From the NCBI GenBank assembly GCA_963736005.1, contig CAVTNB010000003.1, forward strand, positions 416,001 through 480,000: DNA of 64,000 bases, in the 5' to 3' direction. Below the pieces are notes generated by a model that saw only the letters and a program-made list of their open reading frames with translations, searched no databases and was not told where the DNA came from. This document shows, in pieces, positions 41,720 to 49,089 of this stretch (within the stretch, counting starts at the first letter, position 1; each line of letters begins with the position of its first letter). Source of the DNA: an uncultured Pseudomonadota bacterium (lineage in GTDB: Bacteria; Vulcanimicrobiota; Vulcanimicrobiia; Eremiobacterales; Eremiobacteraceae). Made by a program: the position numbers and the translations under genes.

Positions 41720-44107
41720 TCATTGCCCGAACTTCAAACCGACGTCGAAGAGCCGAGGTGGCGCATAGTGGTTGCCCTGCGCGTTGAGGATCGTCACATA
41801 GTAGCGATCGTTAAAGAGGTTTTGAATCCGAAACGTAAGGGCGGTCCGCGGTCCGACGCTCACGCCCTTCTCAACCGAGAAGATTGTGTGCGGTGTCTTC
41901 TTACAAAAGCCAGGAGTTCCGGCCGGACAAATGGCCGACGAGAGACCGCTGCCATACTCCGCGTCCGCTGAAAACCACCCATTCTGATTGTCGTTCATGA
42001 GCATGCCGGCGGTGACGCTGTAGCTTTGATCGTGATCCGCGGGTGTGAACCCCGTGGGCGATCCGAAGCAGGGTGCAAGCAGCTGCGTTTCGCATCCCGA
42101 GTTCAACGACAGCGTGTGGGCGACGTTGACGTACGCCCGTCCGTTGCGAATGAGCGGCGCTTGGTAGGTTAGTGCTTCCTGCGAAAGCCGGCCAAGCGTG
42201 TAGTTGATGTCCTGATGGAGCAGCGTCACGCCAACTTGCGTGTCATCGATGAGATCGTTGGCATTCTTCTGCCAAACGCGAAAGCCCAGGGTTCCATTAC
42301 CCAACGGGAGATGGCCTCCAAGTTCGAGTTGCGTATCGCGCTCTGGTTTGAGATCGAATTGCGCGAGCGTCGACTGCAGCGGCAAGTTCAACAATTGCGC
42401 GGCTCGCGGATCGACGTTTTCAAGGGAGAATGGTTCGAAGAAGCGCCCTAGATACACATAGACACTCGCCCGAGGTCCGAAATTTCTCGCGAGCTTGATG
42501 CGCGGACTCACCGCGCCGAATCCACGGGCAAAATCTGTCGACTTGATGTTGAACAGATCCCAGCGCATTCCGTAGTCGAGTGTGTAGGCGTTCCCCATGG
42601 TCCAGCTATCCTCAACGTACGTGCTGTAGATGTTGCCCACGTTGGGATTGTTGTCCACCACCGTAAAGGGTGCATGCGGCATTCCTTTCGTAAAAATCGG
42701 CGCCAAGAAGTTGTTCGGTTGCAGCGTCACCTGATAGTCTTTGATGACGCGGGTCCCATCGTAGGAGATGCCAGCGCGCAGTTCGTGCTTCTCGTATTGT
42801 TTTGAGTAATCGCTTTGAAAGATGTAATCCAGCGCCGTCTTGTCGTCGAAGAGCGAGAAGGCGCACGTGGTGGGAGAAAAGACTCCGGTTTGCACAGCCT
42901 TGGCGCAATCGGTGGAGCTTCCACCGTTGCCGAAAGGCGGTGGAGTTTGGTTGATAGCCTCTCCAAAGGCCCAGTCGTTGACCGGATCGCCGTAGTCCAC
43001 AACACGCGAAACCTTAAATGCCGGTCCAAAACTGAGCGCGCCTGCATTGCCCAGAGCCTGGCGGAATTGAACATTGACGAAGGTGTCGAGTTGCTTCTCG
43101 CTGTCATCCGTGTTCCCAGGCTCTCCAAAGCTGGTAGCATTGGGTATTTGGTTTGTTTGGAAACTGTTGATGATCGAGACGTCGGTGAAGTTGTTATTGC
43201 CGCGCGGCAGCGTCAAGCGCACGAACTCATTCGCGTCGCTTGCGTTGTTGTGCGGCGAACCCAGGTCGGGCGGGTCTAAGCCGCGAGTGGACTGGTCGAG
43301 ATGCAGAGCTGCAGCGAGCCCCCCACCACCACTAAGCGGTGAGTGGAACCCCAGCGTCTCGTCGAGGTTCGTGTACGAACCAACGTGCATTTCACCATCA
43401 ACGCCCGCTGGTCCGGATTGGGCGCGGGTTGAGATGTTGAGTACCGACCCGAATTTGAGTCCATACTGCGCCGGGTACGCACCCTCCATGGCATCGACGA
43501 ACGATACATCGTTGGGATCGATCTCACTGCCGATCTCTCGATTGAGCGCCTGAGGCACCGCAACGCCGTCAACGACGTAGTTGATGACTCCGTGGTCGCC
43601 GTTGAGGTGCACAACGCCGTTGGCCCCGCGCACCGCGCCGGGCAGCTGGATGAGTGCTTCGGGGAAGTTGCCGTTGTATGGCAAGCGCGTCAATACCGTC
43701 TTGTTGAGAACCGTATCGGAGCCGCTGCCGCGGCTGACTCCGGAGGTCACAACGCTCACGCGTCCGAGTTCGGATATTTGAGCAAGCACGAGCATGACCG
43801 TTGCGCCGCCGTTGCTCAGATCCACCCGGACCTGAGCTTGCATGCCACTTGCTGTCGCGGTCACGATATACGTGCCAAGACCGAGACCCGGGAATGTAAA
43901 GTGCCCCTGCGGGTCCGTGATGACTTTGGCCGTGAAATTATTGCCAGCCACCGTGACCGCAGCCCCTGGAACGGACTTGCCGTCTGACGTGACCGTACCG
44001 GACAAGAAAGCGCTCCCACCGGCCGCTAGCACCGCGCTTTTTTCCAAATAGGTGCAAGCGCACCACATTATTGTGAGAACGAGAAAAAACCGAGAAAACT
44101 TCTCCAC
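41720..44107 (-). CDS. TonB-dependent outer membrane receptor with N-terminal carboxypeptidase-regulatory-like domain
   Basis: Signal peptide, G.V...G..VPGA.V, plug YVVDGV..GAYPAQYG, LKPERD, NLFN..Y, terminal beta strand. Confidence 0.88.
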   Translation of the reverse strand: MEKFSRFFLVLTIMWCACTYLEKSAVLAAGGSAFLSGTVTSDGKSVPGAAVTVAGNNFTAKVITDPQGHFTFPGLGLGTYIVTATASGMQAQVRVDLSNGGATVMLVLAQISELGRVSVVTSGVSRGSGSDTVLNKTVLTRLPYNGNFPEALIQLPGAVRGANGVVHLNGDHGVINYVVDGVAVPQALNREIGSEIDPNDVSFVDAMEGAYPAQYGLKFGSVLNISTRAQSGPAGVDGEMHVGSYTNLDETLGFHSPLSGGGGLAAALHLDQSTRGLDPPDLGSPHNNASDANEFVRLTLPRGNNNFTDVSIINSFQTNQIPNATSFGEPGNTDDSEKQLDTFVNVQFRQALGNAGALSFGPAFKVSRVVDYGDPVNDWAFGEAINQTPPPFGNGGSSTDCAKAVQTGVFSPTTCAFSLFDDKTALDYIFQSDYSKQYEKHELRAGISYDGTRVIKDYQVTLQPNNFLAPIFTKGMPHAPFTVVDNNPNVGNIYSTYVEDSWTMGNAYTLDYGMRWDLFNIKSTDFARGFGAVSPRIKLARNFGPRASVYVYLGRFFEPFSLENVDPRAAQLLNLPLQSTLAQFDLKPERDTQLELGGHLPLGNGTLGFRVWQKNANDLIDDTQVGVTLLHQDINYTLGRLSQEALTYQAPLIRNGRAYVNVAHTLSLNSGCETQLLAPCFGSPTGFTPADHDQSYSVTAGMLMNDNQNGWFSADAEYGSGLSSAICPAGTPGFCKKTPHTIFSVEKGVSVGPRTALTFRIQNLFNDRYYVTILNAQGNHYAPPRLFDVGLKFGQ

Positions 44108-44201
44108 GATGACTCCAACTCCTCATGAATATCTTCAAACGACGGCTGTCACAGCCGGCGTATGCCGACCGTAAGACGCGCGCTTTTAGGGCGCTAGGGG
44201 A

Positions 44202-44864
44202 TTACGCGAGGAGCGGAGGTGGACGGTTGGCGAGTTGCGGTGACCAAAAGATGCTGCGTGGCGACCACGCGAAGTTCAAGCATGGCCGGAACACATGGGA
44301 CGTCTCGCCAGCAGCTGGAAGCAGCATCGCCGCCAAGCGTGCTGCAACTCTTGGCAGTCGTGCGGCAATGAGCCGTCCAACAATGGCGAGCAACAGTGCC
44401 GTGACAAGGGCACCAACGACGCCTGCGATCACGTCATGACCGCAAAAGAAGCAACCCTCGCCGATCGCGCTGCCGACGCCGGCCGCAAATTGCAGGGTCG
44501 CCGCGAGCAAATAGAATTGCCAGCCGCCGCCCAGAGGCAGCGTGGCCATCTCATTTGAGAGCAGACGTTTAAAATCTCGGATACCACTGGCCCGCTGTGT
44601 CAGTCCGCGAAATTCACAGACGACGACCGTTGCGCTCGCAAGCGCGATCAGGGCAAGATAGGCGTGACGTGGGGAGAGCACAATGTGCGCGTCAGCATCT
44701 GCGCCCATCCCAAAAAACTCGGATGCCAAATGGGTGAGCACGGCACCTACAACGATGCCCGCTGGAACGGTCCAACGCAAGCTCGATGCCTGAGCCCAAT
44801 GTTGAGAGGTCACAGAAAACAATTTCCCCACTGATAAGTATCGGCTTGCCCAAAGCTGCGGCAT
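44202..44864 (-). CDS. Membrane protein ending in LANRPPP; putative arrest-peptide leader (start 44864 or 44813)
   Basis: About 4 hydrophobic segments, His residues, CFFCGH, C-terminal SPQLANRPPPLLA; lies directly upstream of a TBDR gene. Confidence 0.7.
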   Translation of the reverse strand: MPQLWASRYLSVGKLFSVTSQHWAQASSLRWTVPAGIVVGAVLTHLASEFFGMGADADAHIVLSPRHAYLALIALASATVVVCEFRGLTQRASGIRDFKRLLSNEMATLPLGGGWQFYLLAATLQFAAGVGSAIGEGCFFCGHDVIAGVVGALVTALLLAIVGRLIAARLPRVAARLAAMLLPAAGETSHVFRPCLNFAWSPRSIFWSPQLANRPPPLLA

Positions 44865-44883
44865 ATGCTGGTCATCACACTTG

Positions 44884-44906
44884 TTATCGAGAATCATTCT
44901 CGATAA
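44884..44906. promoter_or_regulatory. Fur-family (Zur-like) operator palindrome
   Basis: TTATCGAGAAT-C-ATTCTCGATAA perfect inverted repeat, identical to 55987-56009. Confidence 0.85.
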
Positions 44907-44997
44907 CCACAGCGGCTGACCTTCGCCTAGCATCATGAAAATGCCCTGAATCCCTTGCAATGGATGACTGACGAAATGCCGAACACTCATACAGAAT

Positions 44998-45675
44998 ATG
45001 CCAAACCGAGACCGCTTCGCCTGGCTCCTTATTACCGCGACTGCCCTTGCCGCCATGGTCGTCGGCCATGCACTAGAGCTGTGGCTTGAGAACATACATG
45101 CCTTTGGCGAGCGTCCTGCTCAGTATAACCACGTTGCCCAAAGCTTCGTCGTGGAAATGGCTGCGCTTGCGTTTCTCGTTGCAGGGGTCGCTCTTGTCAG
45201 CCGCCTGGTCGCTTTGGCGGCACGATCAGTTCCGCGCGGCGACTCCTTGTTGCCCGCGTTGCACGCGATTGCCCAAAACGGGGTGGGTCGAGTCATCTTG
45301 CGCCTCGTCACCGTACAGCTACTCGCGCTGCTGCTGACGGAGTTTTGCGAACAGCGGCTCTCTGGATTCCAGGGCAATGCGCTCCTGTCGATCGTCGGAC
45401 CAGGTCACGCGACAGCGCTCGCTGTCCATCTGCTTTTGGGTTCGCTGGCTGCATTTTTGCTCTTTCGTTTTGCGCGCTTCGCGTCTGCGCGGACACGCTC
45501 ACTCGTCCATGCCGTCGTTGCTTTCCTGCGCTGGGTTGCGCTGCAGCCCAACGGCACCGCGCAACTTCCGCATGGTCCCTCGAGCGTTCCCACATTTTTT
45601 GCCCGCAAGCTTTGCCTGATCTCTCTCGGACTTGCTAATAGACCACCTCCGATAACCTCCGCACTTTTCGCCTAG
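44998..45675 (+). CDS. Membrane protein ending in LANRPPP; putative arrest-peptide leader
   Basis: About 4 hydrophobic segments with His residues (GHALE, HAF, NHV, GHA..VH), C-terminal LGLANRPPPITSALFA; lies directly upstream of a TBDR gene. Confidence 0.75.
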   Translation: MPNRDRFAWLLITATALAAMVVGHALELWLENIHAFGERPAQYNHVAQSFVVEMAALAFLVAGVALVSRLVALAARSVPRGDSLLPALHAIAQNGVGRVILRLVTVQLLALLLTEFCEQRLSGFQGNALLSIVGPGHATALAVHLLLGSLAAFLLFRFARFASARTRSLVHAVVAFLRWVALQPNGTAQLPHGPSSVPTFFARKLCLISLGLANRPPPITSALFA

Positions 45676-45740
45676 GCACAAAGCCGTCGTGGCTTTGGCA
45701 TAGCCTAGGCTCCTTGCTATGCTTTTTGCGGAGGTCTTCC

Positions 45741-48026
45741 ATGCGATTTGTACTCGCAACCATTGTCTTGGCAATTCTTGTCACTATGTGCTCCTTGAAC
45801 CCAGCATCCGCCGATGTCTACGGATCTGTGCGCGGCGTTGTTTTCGATCCTGGCAATCACCCCATCGACGGTGCGAAGGTCTCGCTCGCGGCGCCTGACG
45901 AAGCCACGCAAACAACGCCGACCGACTCCACTGGGCATTTCCGTTTTGCCCAGGTACCCTTCGACACATACGCACTGAGCGTTGATGCCCAAGGCTTCGC
46001 CCCAGCCTCGAGCGTGGTGACAGTTTTGTCGGGTAACGCGGTGGACGTGACATTCCATCTTTCACTCAAGACGATCGGGCGGGTCGTCGCGGTGGGCACG
46101 TCGACGGGTGCATCAGGGCAACCCGTGAGCGTCAACGTTATTTCGCAACAAACCATAGCAGCGCTGCCCAACGGAAACTCGCTGCAGCGAATAGTACAGA
46201 CCGTTCCCGGCGTCGTTCCGTTTTCATATAACGAACCGGTTGCGCGCGGCTTTCATGGCGTGACCTACGAGATCGACGGGGTCCCGTTACCGCAAACCGC
46301 GGGGCAGTACTTCTCCGAGATTATCGACCCGCGTGACGTCGATCGCCTCGAAGTGTTCACGGGCGCAATGCCCGCCGAGTTCGGCGGTCAGCGTCAGGGC
46401 GCCGTGGTTGACGTGCTCACGAAGTCCGCGAACCAGTTCATCGGCCCAGATGGGGGTACCGTGTCTCTGTTCGGCGGATCGTATAATACCGCTGGTGTGT
46501 CGCTCGATCAGGTGGCTGGAAGCGGAAATTTCCGCGCATTCTTCAACGCCAATCTGTTTCGGAACGCACGTGGTTTGGATTCTCCAACGAGCTCCCCCGA
46601 GCACGACAACTCCAATCAGAGCGACGGCTTCTTGCGACTTCTGTTCTCGCCGAGCTCGCGCGATACGCTGGCGTTTGACTATTCCGAGCAGTATGCAGCG
46701 TTCCAAATTCCAATCGACACGAACCAACACGACCCTAACAACCCAAATTGGTCAGTGCCCGGCACCGACGACAACCAACACGAGTATACCCGCTTTGCGA
46801 ATCTCACGTACAATCACACAAGCGCCGATGGCAATGGCTTTTTCGAGTTGACGCCCTGGTGGAGTTCGGACCGGCTCACCTATCTGCCGGATCCGCAGAA
46901 CGACCTCGCCGGCGCCTCGCAATCCTCGACCTTCCAGGACCGTTACTCCAACTTTGTCGGTCTCGCAGCCGCTCTGTTTCGTGGTGGTGAAAGGAACAGC
47001 GTCAAAGTTGGAGTCAACACCGACGTTCAAAACATGATGAGCGCGTTCAACATCTTGTTCATCGACCCAAACACCGGGAAGCTTGCGCCTCCTTTTGAGG
47101 ACAACGTTGCTCAACGCGGAACGAACACGGGAGTCTATGCCGAAGACAAGTTCTATGCCTCGCCTTACGTGACCCTAGACGGCGGCCTTCGCTGGGATCA
47201 CTCGACTGGCTTCACGTCTGGCAATCAGATTAGCCCGCGCATTGAAGCCAATTTTCAGGCAGACCCAAAGAACGTTGTCCATTTTTACTACGGCCGCTTG
47301 TATGCCGCACCAGCCCTCGAAGACGTGCGGCGAGATGCAGTCGTTATTGGCGGCGGTTCGTCTAACGCAGTGCCGGTGTACGACCTCAAACCTGAGCGAG
47401 ACTCTATTTATGAGGCCGGCGTTGCGCACGAGTTCAGTCCGCTCGTGCACGGCTTCCTTACCTTGTGGGGTCGGTCAGTCAACAACGTCCTCGATACGAC
47501 GCAGATCGGCAGTACGCCGTTGTTTACGGTCTTCAACTCTGCGGGAGGTCAGGCAAGCGGCGTGGAGTTTCGCATCAACGGCCGCGTCCTCAATGGCAAC
47601 TCCTATTACTTCTCGTATGGCACAAGCTACAGCATCGCGTCAGGCATCTCCGGCGGAACGTTCAACTTCCCAGTCAGCGCGCTGCAGGGTGCCAACGGGT
47701 GGGCGCTCGAGGACCACGATCAAACGAACACGATCAACACGGCGTACACGTTCACTGCTCCCGGTGGCCGGTTCGCGACGCTGCAAGCCCTCTTTGGCAG
47801 CGGCTTCCCAGTGCAGTTCGAAAATGGCCCGGGGCGGCTGCCGGCGCACTGGGAACTTGGCGCCTCGTACGGACAGCCGGCGTCGCGCACGGGCGTGGGC
47901 TGGGAAGTGAGCGGCACGAACCTGCTCAATCACTTCTATCTAATCAAAGTCGCGAACGGGTTCAACTCCACGCAGTACTCGGCCGGAAGGCAGGTTACTG
48001 TGAAGTTGACGGCGCCTGTCTACTAA
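45741..48026 (+). CDS. TonB-dependent outer membrane receptor (paralogue of 41720..44107)
   Basis: GGAGG RBS, signal peptide, YEIDGV..GAMPAEFG plug, SPR, LKPERD, DHDQ, NLLN..Y. Confidence 0.88.
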   Translation: MRFVLATIVLAILVTMCSLNPASADVYGSVRGVVFDPGNHPIDGAKVSLAAPDEATQTTPTDSTGHFRFAQVPFDTYALSVDAQGFAPASSVVTVLSGNAVDVTFHLSLKTIGRVVAVGTSTGASGQPVSVNVISQQTIAALPNGNSLQRIVQTVPGVVPFSYNEPVARGFHGVTYEIDGVPLPQTAGQYFSEIIDPRDVDRLEVFTGAMPAEFGGQRQGAVVDVLTKSANQFIGPDGGTVSLFGGSYNTAGVSLDQVAGSGNFRAFFNANLFRNARGLDSPTSSPEHDNSNQSDGFLRLLFSPSSRDTLAFDYSEQYAAFQIPIDTNQHDPNNPNWSVPGTDDNQHEYTRFANLTYNHTSADGNGFFELTPWWSSDRLTYLPDPQNDLAGASQSSTFQDRYSNFVGLAAALFRGGERNSVKVGVNTDVQNMMSAFNILFIDPNTGKLAPPFEDNVAQRGTNTGVYAEDKFYASPYVTLDGGLRWDHSTGFTSGNQISPRIEANFQADPKNVVHFYYGRLYAAPALEDVRRDAVVIGGGSSNAVPVYDLKPERDSIYEAGVAHEFSPLVHGFLTLWGRSVNNVLDTTQIGSTPLFTVFNSAGGQASGVEFRINGRVLNGNSYYFSYGTSYSIASGISGGTFNFPVSALQGANGWALEDHDQTNTINTAYTFTAPGGRFATLQALFGSGFPVQFENGPGRLPAHWELGASYGQPASRTGVGWEVSGTNLLNHFYLIKVANGFNSTQYSAGRQVTVKLTAPVY

Positions 48027-48471
48027 GCCGGGACTGTGCACGCGACCACCACGCAAGGTAGATCGCCGCAGCAAAGAGACTCACGTCGCGTAGCACCGTC
48101 ATCCACGTCGCGGGTTGATTGTCGCCTGGACCAAAGCAACCGCAAGGCGCACTCAACCCGCGGATGACGGCCGAAGCAACGATAACCGAGAAGAGCGCGA
48201 GCACAGCAGCCGCGACCGCTGAAGACACCGGAAGCAGGAGCCCCGCTACGAGATAAATCCCAAGCAGTATCTCAAGTGGCGGGAGCGCGAGCGCCAAGCC
48301 TGCAACAAACGGGGGAGGCGCGCCAAGCTTGTAGGCGGTTATCGCCGCGGCGAGATCGGCGGGATGGCCAATTTTCAAGATGCCTGCAGCGAGGAAAATG
48401 CCGCCGACGATAAGGCGTACGAGGAAGGGAACAATATGAGCGCGAGGCCCAAAGAGACGAGCCAGGGTCAA
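47995..48471 (-). CDS. MauE/DoxX family membrane protein (start uncertain)
   Basis: RL..GG.FL.AG..K, LP.LE..LG, CGCFG, RD. Confidence 0.8.
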   Translation of the reverse strand: MTLARLFGPRAHIVPFLVRLIVGGIFLAAGILKIGHPADLAAAITAYKLGAPPPFVAGLALALPPLEILLGIYLVAGLLLPVSSAVAAAVLALFSVIVASAVIRGLSAPCGCFGPGDNQPATWMTVLRDVSLFAAAIYLAWWSRAQSRLSRQAPSTSQ

Positions 48472-49089
48472 AAGGCCGCCACCTCGCCGCCACGCCGACC
48501 CACAAGCGTGCTCTTGCCAGCCATCGTCGCGTTGGTTGCGATTGCTGCTATCATTGTCTACGCGGTTCTGCACGCCAACCGAGCCGTTCCTGGGTCTGCT
48601 GTCGCAACCGACTCGCCTGCGCTCCCACCGCCAATCAAAGCCGGCGCGCAAGCGCCCGGGTTTGCGTTGCCCAGCAAGATTGGCACGTTTTCCTCAAGCG
48701 AACTTGACGGCACGCCCTATCTCTTGGAGATTTTTGCGACGTGGTGCCCGCACTGCCAGCGCATGACGAAGGTTCTGCGCGCGATTCGCGCGAGCGTACC
48801 GCAAGCGCGTCTCGGCATGGTTTCGGTGACCGGCTCGCCGTACGCGGCTAATTCGACGCCGGACAATCTCGTTCCCGAAAATCAAGGTGACGTTGATGCA
48901 TTTGAGTCAACGTTCGGCGTCACGTGGCCGAGCTTTTACGATCCCGACCTTACGGTGGCAAAGAAGTGGGGCTTGGATGGCTTCCCGACGATCTTCATCG
49001 TCAATGCAAAAGGAACGATCGTCTACGCAACGAGCGGGGAAGTATCAAAAACCGAATTGATGAACGCCATAAAGAAGGCCGGCGCTTAG
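48436..49089 (+). CDS. TlpA/ResA-like membrane-anchored thioredoxin
   Basis: TM anchor, APGF.L, FATWCPHC, G.PT.FIV...G; GGAAGGG RBS. Confidence 0.88.
   Translation: MSARPKETSQGQKAATSPPRRPTSVLLPAIVALVAIAAIIVYAVLHANRAVPGSAVATDSPALPPPIKAGAQAPGFALPSKIGTFSSSELDGTPYLLEIFATWCPHCQRMTKVLRAIRASVPQARLGMVSVTGSPYAANSTPDNLVPENQGDVDAFESTFGVTWPSFYDPDLTVAKKWGLDGFPTIFIVNAKGTIVYATSGEVSKTELMNAIKKAGA

Follow-up and report, generated by a model that had tools for sequence, protein, structure and literature searches.

The window analysed here, a stretch of 64,000 nucleotides (nt) from an uncultured bacterium of the Eremiobacteraceae (Vulcanimicrobiota; assembly GCA_963736005.1, contig CAVTNB010000003.1, positions 416,001 to 480,000), contains two divergent gene pairs, in each of which an open reading frame (ORF) for a membrane protein precedes a gene for a TonB-dependent receptor. 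The subject of this report is the junction within each pair, where the last codons of the membrane-protein gene are complementary to the Shine-Dalgarno (SD) region of the receptor gene. Positions are counted from the first nucleotide of the window. On the plus strand, ORF A (44998..45675) encodes a conserved polytopic membrane protein of 225 amino acids (aa) that belongs to no known family and ends in LANRPPPITSALFA before its stop codon. The codons of its Arg-Pro-Pro-Pro motif (RPPP; aga cca cct ccg, 45640..45651) are the proposed stall site, with cct (45646-48) as the P-site codon. The Thr-Ser-Ala codons that follow form the anti-SD arm ACCTCCGCA (45655..45663), the core of which lies +9 to +14 nt from the P-site codon. 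This arm is the exact reverse complement of the SD arm TGCGGAGGT (45727..45735), which contains the SD GGAGG (45730-45734) 6 nt 5′ of the receptor ATG (45741-45743). The receptor gene itself (45741..48026, plus strand), with CarboxypepD_reg, Plug and beta-barrel domains, is the putative regulated gene. Between the two arms lies an inner hairpin (45670..45710), composed of two copies of GCCTAGGC paired with each other (45670-45677 and 45703-45710), the first of which includes the TAG stop of ORF A (45673-45675), and of the nested stem CAAAGCC (45679-45685)/GGCTTTG (45691-45697). The first ACCTCCG of the locus lies within the RPPP codons (45645-45651). A first-pass annotation of the sequence had reported the complementary arms, the nested stems and, as a second copy, this ACCTCCG, and all of its coordinates were correct.

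Folding of the RNA from 45620 to 45760 with ViennaRNA returned the single long nested hairpin that had been predicted, at -48.3 kcal/mol. Shuffled sequences had a mean of -34.2 kcal/mol (standard deviation 3.6; z -3.90) and none out of 200 was as stable. The modelled opening energy of the ribosome-binding site (RBS) was 15.6 kcal/mol, a value reached by 2.7% of 150 other strong-SD starts chosen heuristically from the same genome. At this locus alone, synonymous recoding of the codons after the Arg reached the observed pairing with the SD in 3.7% of 300 trials. The stem that includes the stop codon was judged, by eye only, to change on both sides in relatives, for example GCTTAGGC/GCCTAAGC in locus L004. 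A search of positions 43900-45900 with the Rfam 15 covariance models gave no matches at E <= 1.

The minus-strand pair is a twin of this arrangement. ORF B (44202..44807) encodes a distant paralogue of A of about 201 aa, its start being uncertain, with the motif GEGCFFCGHD and the C-terminus LANRPPPLLA followed by the stop; its RPPP codons are at 44225-44214. The last Pro codons plus Leu-Leu form the anti-SD CTCCGCTCCTC (44218-44208, minus strand), complementary to GAGGAGTTGGAG (44124-44113), which is located close 5′ of the GTG start (44107-44105) of the second receptor gene (41720..44107, minus strand). The two receptors are 26% identical. This locus folded at -54.7 kcal/mol, and at -41.1 kcal/mol once the footprint of a ribosome was masked.

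Among 24 genomes of the same family, single-protein searches recovered A, at full length, in 19 and B in 22; neither was found in 16 genomes from two other families of the class. A profile of B matched 19 of 22 genomes in family f1 and 29 of 206 in family f2 among 300 further genomes of the phylum, and none of the 72 genomes from 19 other families. The analysis covered two families of the Vulcanimicrobiota and comprised 17 A, 23 B and 12 f2 loci, 52 in total. Three A-query matches were left out, one with a split ORF (L018) and two at contig ends (L019 and L020). Four loci from unpublished genomes, L004 and L026 (G013) and L017 and L031 (G008), are included in the counts of 52 loci and in those of 37 loci given below. 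In L018 (G022:C1) the A homologue lies in two adjacent pieces (query positions 4-128 and 131-225), possibly due to a frameshift or an assembly error.

All 52 loci, which represent three deeply diverged paralogue groups, had [N/S/Y]RPPP one to nine codons 5′ of the stop, and in 51 of them the next ORF was a CarboxypepD_reg-type receptor. The exception was L012 (G005), where the downstream ORF of 303 aa has a signal-peptide-like start and no CarboxypepD_reg or Plug match; this locus keeps an SD and a CTCCAC/GTGGAG pairing. A search of 1.84 billion proteins yielded 132 cluster representatives, 108 with RPPP within their last 25 residues. Two representatives (P0120 and P0154) had NRAPP at the equivalent C-terminal site, a connection to the arrest motifs of the known RAPP class, and two others (P0069 and P0079) had LPPPRLL. 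About half of the 22 representatives with neither RPPP nor RAPP were fragment-like, judging by their length. Across the 52 loci six codons, drawn from the two Arg codon families, served for the Arg of RPPP and all four Pro codons for the Pro residues, so that selection acts on the peptide and not on the RNA alone. RNA-level constraint as the sole cause of RPPP conservation is ruled out by this codon usage. CCT accounts for 12% of the Pro codons of the genome, less than any other, yet it was found at the first Pro position in 17 and at the second in 20 of the 52 loci.

Selection on the pairing was examined by computing the duplex between the segment from the Arg codon to +33 nt and positions -17 to -3 of the receptor start, for cognate and non-cognate combinations of loci. 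In 37 loci the cognate duplexes averaged -15.74 kcal/mol against -11.29 kcal/mol for the non-cognate ones, and none of 10,000 permutations was as low, a count that, like the other permutation counts given here, overstates significance because kin are not independent. The corresponding counts were 15 in 10,000 for A only, 0 in 10,000 for B only and 0 in 10,000 for the 33 loci of published genomes. Longer windows gave -19.18 against -13.97 kcal/mol (0 in 10,000), and the independent set of 12 f2 loci gave -11.47 against -9.24 kcal/mol (2 in 10,000). Synonymous recoding with the codon usage of the genome produced a mean of -10.98 kcal/mol, and none out of 300 recoded sets reached the observed -15.74; individually, 23 of the 37 loci were at <= 0.05. 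The pairing signal recurs in three paralogue groups.

Alignments of the RNA led to the same helix. In MAFFT alignments of A (8 sequences) and B (10 sequences) the anti-SD/SD helix was the sole consensus structure found by RNAalifold. In the unfitted alignment of B, 76.8% of the cells of an 11-pair helix were paired, compared to 27-44% when the partners were slid against each other. Seven of the 11 pairs had changes on both sides, and the covariation score of 0.230, against 0.118 in shuffled alignments, was reached by none of 500 shuffles. Compensatory combinations include CTCTCCAAGTC/GACTTGGAGAG in L032 and TCCCTCTCGA/TCGAGAGGGA in L035, and the contrast between GCTCCTAG/CTAGGAGC in L061 and CGCTCCTAA/TTAGGAGCG in L064. 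In the last two loci the stop codon lies within the anti-SD and co-varies with its partner. A chance origin of the pairing, as a by-product of CCU-CCN Pro codons that supply a CCUCC complementary to any GGAGG, can be argued from roughly one locus in three, where the SD finds its best complement in the Pro codons. It is hardly credible as a full account, since the pairing reaches beyond the SD core with changes on both sides, exceeds synonymous recoding and is present in three paralogue groups.

The anti-SD is also placed where a ribosome halted on RPPP would cover it. A paused ribosome protects its mRNA from -12 to +14 nt of the P site. The P site was assigned to the second Pro codon and the A site to the third, an assignment assumed from toeprints of PPP and RAPP peptides (PMC12992588; here and below, published work is represented by excerpts of the papers cited). 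The nt that pair with the SD core fell entirely within this footprint in 36 of the 37 loci. Over all loci the core was within the footprint in 46 of 52, where uniform placement, a null that ignores base composition, predicted 36.1 (P 8e-4). In family B the position of the anti-SD varied less relative to PPP (standard deviation 4.2 nt) than relative to the stop (7.3 nt). Among the loci with eight or nine codons after PPP, the core ended 17-20 nt 5′ of the stop in seven out of eight, and 29 nt in L025; a core that ends 17-20 nt before the stop is outside the footprint of a terminating ribosome.

Masking the footprint at the plus-strand locus removed the long stem and raised the folding energy from -48.3 to -35.3 kcal/mol, after which the SD could still pair over 6 bp with an alternative partner immediately 5′ of the footprint. 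In the 37 loci the mean opening energy from the SD to the start was 12.9 kcal/mol in the free mRNA and 7.7 kcal/mol with a ribosome at PPP, with a drop of at least 3 kcal/mol in 32 of the loci; it was 6.4 kcal/mol when the mRNA 5′ of the footprint was also blocked. The background of the genome, from the 150 strong-SD starts, was 9.5 +/- 3.4 kcal/mol. In the free mRNA the mean unpaired probability of the SD was 0.08, and it was below 0.2 in 33 of the 37 loci. Covariation in homologues and the loss of the stem under a masked footprint had both been put forward as checks on the idea, and both came out in its favour (0 in 10,000 permutations for 37 loci and 2 in 10,000 for f2, seven of 11 pairs changed on both sides; mean opening energy 12.9 to 7.7 kcal/mol).

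We suggest, with moderate confidence, that the 3′ end of the membrane-protein gene carries a translational switch of the SecM/CutF type, in which a pause at RPPP uncovers the SD of the receptor. In the free mRNA the receptor SD would be held in the long hairpin by the codons at or just 3′ of RPPP. A ribosome pausing with the second Pro in the P site and the third Pro in the A site would cover the anti-SD with its mRNA channel, the SD would be released and 30S subunits could initiate on the receptor gene. Once the pause was resolved, the ribosome would proceed to the stop, the hairpin would re-form and translation of the receptor would cease. How long the ribosome pauses is probably tuned by the upstream four-helix inner-membrane protein, as in CutF and CruR, by way of bound metal or of the force with which its insertion into the membrane pulls on the nascent chain. 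The data establish the conserved and covarying hairpin, its placement with respect to RPPP and selection on the RPPP peptide; we infer the pause, its role over mere transit in opening the SD, and any modulating signal. In E. coli assays without elongation factor P (EF-P), in vitro as well as in vivo, RPPP stalled more strongly than any other XPPP motif, and it is under-represented in that species (PMC4176338); a later study with reporters uses it as its "strong" standard (bioRxiv 10.1101/2024.08.03.606492).

Besides the non-independence of kin, several observations weigh against this switch. Cognate pairing was weak in L063 (-5.8 kcal/mol) and L071 (-5.2 kcal/mol), and in L013 and L014 it was no better than non-cognate pairing. 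In several loci the anti-SD consists of the Pro codons themselves (CCUCC), which any Pro-Pro pair could supply. The core overshot +14 by 1-4 nt in six of the 52 loci. CxxC, a conserved motif of B described below, was missing from 84 of the 108 RPPP-bearing cluster representatives. EF-P, which normally relieves PPP pauses, is encoded in this genome, so that a long arrest would need the help of the upstream residues [L/F/Y/G]-N-R or of the state of the nascent chain; in the CutF system copper is reported to override EF-P (bioRxiv 10.1101/2025.02.05.636593). Masking the footprint raised the mean unpaired probability of the SD only from 0.08 to 0.23, with values above 0.5 in two of the 37 loci. 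The first-pass annotation had held that a stalled ribosome covers the anti-SD and frees the RBS; the position of the core and the fall in opening energy support this, while the unmasking of the SD was partial and the stall is one that we infer.

Finally, with a ribosome modelled at the stop codon the opening energy was 7.2 kcal/mol, nearly equal to that at PPP, and the thermodynamic model therefore cannot tell a pause at PPP from transit or termination. This bears on an alternative in which there is plain translational coupling and no programmed arrest. The SD would then be masked only to have the receptor translated whenever ribosomes traverse the end of the upstream ORF, and at the same rate, and RPPP would be kept for a protein reason, such as a contact of the cytoplasmic tail. 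The similar lowering of the opening energy from the stop codon (7.2 against 6.4-7.7 kcal/mol) speaks for coupling, as do the presence of EF-P and the fact that the upstream ORFs are full-size conserved proteins and not throw-away leaders. We nevertheless consider it rather unlikely. The anti-SD of family B follows PPP rather than the stop, and where eight or nine codons follow PPP the core is beyond the reach of a terminating ribosome. Moreover, RPPP is the one invariant feature among paralogues that can be aligned only at the profile level, a known arrest motif (RAPP) is found at the same site in two homologues, and the tail is predicted to be disordered.

In the switch as we propose it, the upstream proteins would probably tune the pause. 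In A, which is 219-234 aa long among homologues, residues H24, E31, H45, Q48, E115, E118, Q119, H137 and R215-P218 were invariant, and LANRPPP was kept in all 29 database homologues, none of which is named. LANRPPP was also the only stretch shared by A and B in BLASTP, whereas hhalign matched the two over 187 columns (probability 89%, E 2.2e-6), indicating distant paralogues. An AlphaFold2 model of B, which is about 200 aa long, had a predicted local distance difference test score of 73.7 and four long helices (residues 13-37, 46-72, 96-116 and 126-162), followed by a disordered tail (163-201) that carries NRPPP. The motif GEGCxFCGHD was present in 17 of 20 B loci, with 71-74 residues from CxxC to the Arg of RPPP, and in 14 of 15 further loci, with 70-74 residues. 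A lacks CxxC; in all 17 A loci GxGH was 75-79 residues from the Arg. These conserved motifs at a constant distance to RPPP suggest a sensing role for the upstream protein. Judging from the same spacing, the last helix would be just beyond the exit tunnel when the ribosome is at RPPP.

Known families offered no name for these proteins. Searches with A and B gave no Pfam match at E <= 0.01 and no NCBIfam match, a Foldseek search of the PDB with the model of B gave none at E <= 0.001, and the ESM Atlas search returned solely unnamed "hypothetical protein" clusters. None of the 17 A members matched PF11162 (DUF2946) at E <= 10. A whole-genome search with PF11162 found nothing at the A or B loci, its best match elsewhere being below the cut-off (15.7 bits) and containing stops. 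The receptors matched no specific substrate class in NCBIfam, with weak sub-threshold matches to heme, siderophore and PqqU models. The start codons of A and B mostly lack an SD (L013, L014 and other loci), and several of them have a TATAAT-like hexamer at about -11 to -6, for example GCCGTATAATATCAA-ATG. This is the pattern expected of leaderless mRNAs, and it is not clear for ORF A of the window.

The closest published counterparts are two systems of the DUF2946 family. In CutF-CutO of Rhodobacter capsulatus the upstream ORF also ends in PPP and a stem-loop shields the next SD (PMC9973294). There too a stalled membrane-targeted nascent chain is proposed to melt the stem-loop, the stall site is preceded by a Cys motif and EF-P takes part (PMC9973294; bioRxiv 10.1101/2025.02.05.636593). 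CutF, however, is described in these excerpts as small and secreted, carrying a Sec signal peptide and CxxxC, while the proteins studied here are four-helix membrane proteins of 200-225 aa with no PF11162 match. The gene regulated by CutF is a multicopper oxidase and not a TonB-dependent receptor, and here the motif is [NSY]RPPP and the anti-SD is in the coding region, inside the footprint of the stalled ribosome. The upstream ORF of CruR-BfrG in Bordetella pertussis carries CxxC and, at conserved spacing, a C-terminal R-x-P-P motif placed three residues from the stop (PMC9426467; PMC12992588), and CruR heads an operon with a TonB-dependent transporter (PMC9426467). Its arrest was demonstrated, with the PP of RAPP toeprinted in the P and A sites (PMC12992588). 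CruR differs in its motif, RAPP, in a spacing of 45 residues compared to 70-74 here, and in that EF-P is not involved. CruR acts through Rho-dependent termination, across an intergenic region of 162 bp, and the excerpts consulted mention no helix that sequesters an SD (PMC9426467; PMC12992588). As in DUF2946 systems, a Pro motif near the stop heads what would be a transporter operon (RPPP in 52 and the receptor in 51 of the 52 loci). The spacing from CxxC to RPPP in B is constant but differs from the 45 residues of DUF2946.

More generally, SecM-secA, MifM-yidC2, VemP-secDF2 and the RAPP/RGPP (RQH) peptides share with our loci a C-terminal arrest motif, putative in our case, adjoining an SD-masking structure, an N-terminal membrane or secretion signal, and a motif that alone is conserved among otherwise unrelated upstream ORFs (PMC10987492; PMC12992588). 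They differ in that they control Sec or YidC components or are short upstream ORFs (uORFs), as far as these papers' excerpts describe them (PMC10987492; PMC12992588). uORFs of the RAPP/RGPP type are over-represented 5′ of genes for TonB-dependent receptors (PMC12992588), and A and B resemble RAPP-like arrest peptides in conserving an R-x-P-P-type motif near the C terminus while the remainder diverges. The analogy with secM and mifM drawn by the first-pass annotation was thus right in kind, CutF-CutO and CruR-BfrG being nearer in function. EF-P-dependent polyproline pausing, as in the XPPP hierarchy and CadC, likewise has RPPP as its strongest pause motif, under-represented in E. coli, but tunes the level of the carrier protein itself and not a downstream RBS (PMC4176338; bioRxiv 10.1101/2024.08.03.606492). 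A and B fall outside DUF2946 in sequence and architecture, yet by analogy they appear to work like its members, and the putative switch is otherwise of a known kind. We found no description of the A/B family or of a class of RPPP uORFs in the literature, the supplementary tables of PMC10987492 and PMC12992588, which could list such ORFs, being outside the search; in the excerpts of PMC10987492, RPPP is present only as a proteome search term.

The parallel with CruR raises the question of control at the level of transcription, in which the paused ribosome would shield the RNA from Rho or block a terminator and SD pairing would be secondary. CruR regulates a TonB-dependent transporter in this way (PMC9426467), and by eye a T-rich run was seen 3′ of the inner hairpin in L008, L009, L011 and L017. 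A terminator scan of the window called no GC-rich hairpin with an adjoining U tract at 45655-45735, nor any terminator-like site where the hairpin lies. The covariation is in the anti-SD/SD helix itself, and the intergenic regions are short (28-107 nt) and structured, whereas the rut region of cruR is described as unstructured. We therefore regard termination control as improbable. A promoter of the receptor's own within the intergenic region is a still poorer explanation, which would leave the anti-SD out of the receptor mRNA and make the hairpin irrelevant. One sigma-70-like match, TTGGCA-17-TATGCT, was found at 45695-45723, within the hairpin, compared with 0.6 in shuffled sequence. A transcript from it would begin at about the SD itself and the covariation would be left unexplained, making this origin very unlikely.

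ORFs A and B diverge from a gap of 190 nt, from which the transcription of both gene pairs may be controlled. This gap holds a perfect 12-1-12 palindrome, GTTATCGAGAAT-C-ATTCTCGATAAC (44883..44907). Related palindromes (at least 17 of 25 positions matching; consensus about TTATTGAGAATGATTCTCAATAA) were found upstream in nine of 17 A loci and 13 of 20 B loci, divergent neighbours sharing one site. The palindrome has what we take to be a resemblance to the 7-1-7 box of the Fur family, and it is likely a candidate operator of a Fur-family metal regulator. This presumed likeness points to transcription that depends on metal, in addition to the proposed translational switch.

Combining these elements, we tentatively propose a more specific and less certain scheme, in which a four-helix metal-binding protein of the inner membrane, full-size and functional, would itself serve as the arrest peptide. 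The dwell time on RPPP would be set by the force that pulls on the nascent chain, arising either from metal occupancy of a periplasm-facing His/Glu/Cys site or as the last helix, some 45 residues before RPPP, inserts. Such an arrangement might give direct transmembrane control of an outer-membrane receptor at the level of translation, layered on Fur-type transcriptional control and having arisen independently of DUF2946 in a phylum with hardly any cultured members.

Arrest peptides that sense extracytoplasmic conditions are only now being recognised, among them CutF, CruR and the RAPP/RGPP uORFs 5′ of TonB-dependent receptor genes. If the switch proposed here is real, it would add a polyproline (RPPP) class carried by a polytopic membrane protein with no DUF2946 sequence match, and for the Vulcanimicrobiota (Eremiobacterota) it would be the first proposal of how the uptake of nutrients or metals is regulated. 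The 52 loci from three paralogue groups, with many compensatory changes and an anti-SD that would lie exactly in the mRNA channel of a ribosome paused at RPPP, are an unusually clean natural data set. They provide a simple rule for finding similar switches, namely a C-terminal R-x-P-P followed within about 14 nt by the complement of the SD of the next gene.

Just 3′ of the plus-strand receptor gene, positions 47995-49089 encode a MauE/DoxX membrane protein on the minus strand and a secreted thioredoxin/redoxin-like protein on the plus strand, which together form a thiol-redox pair.

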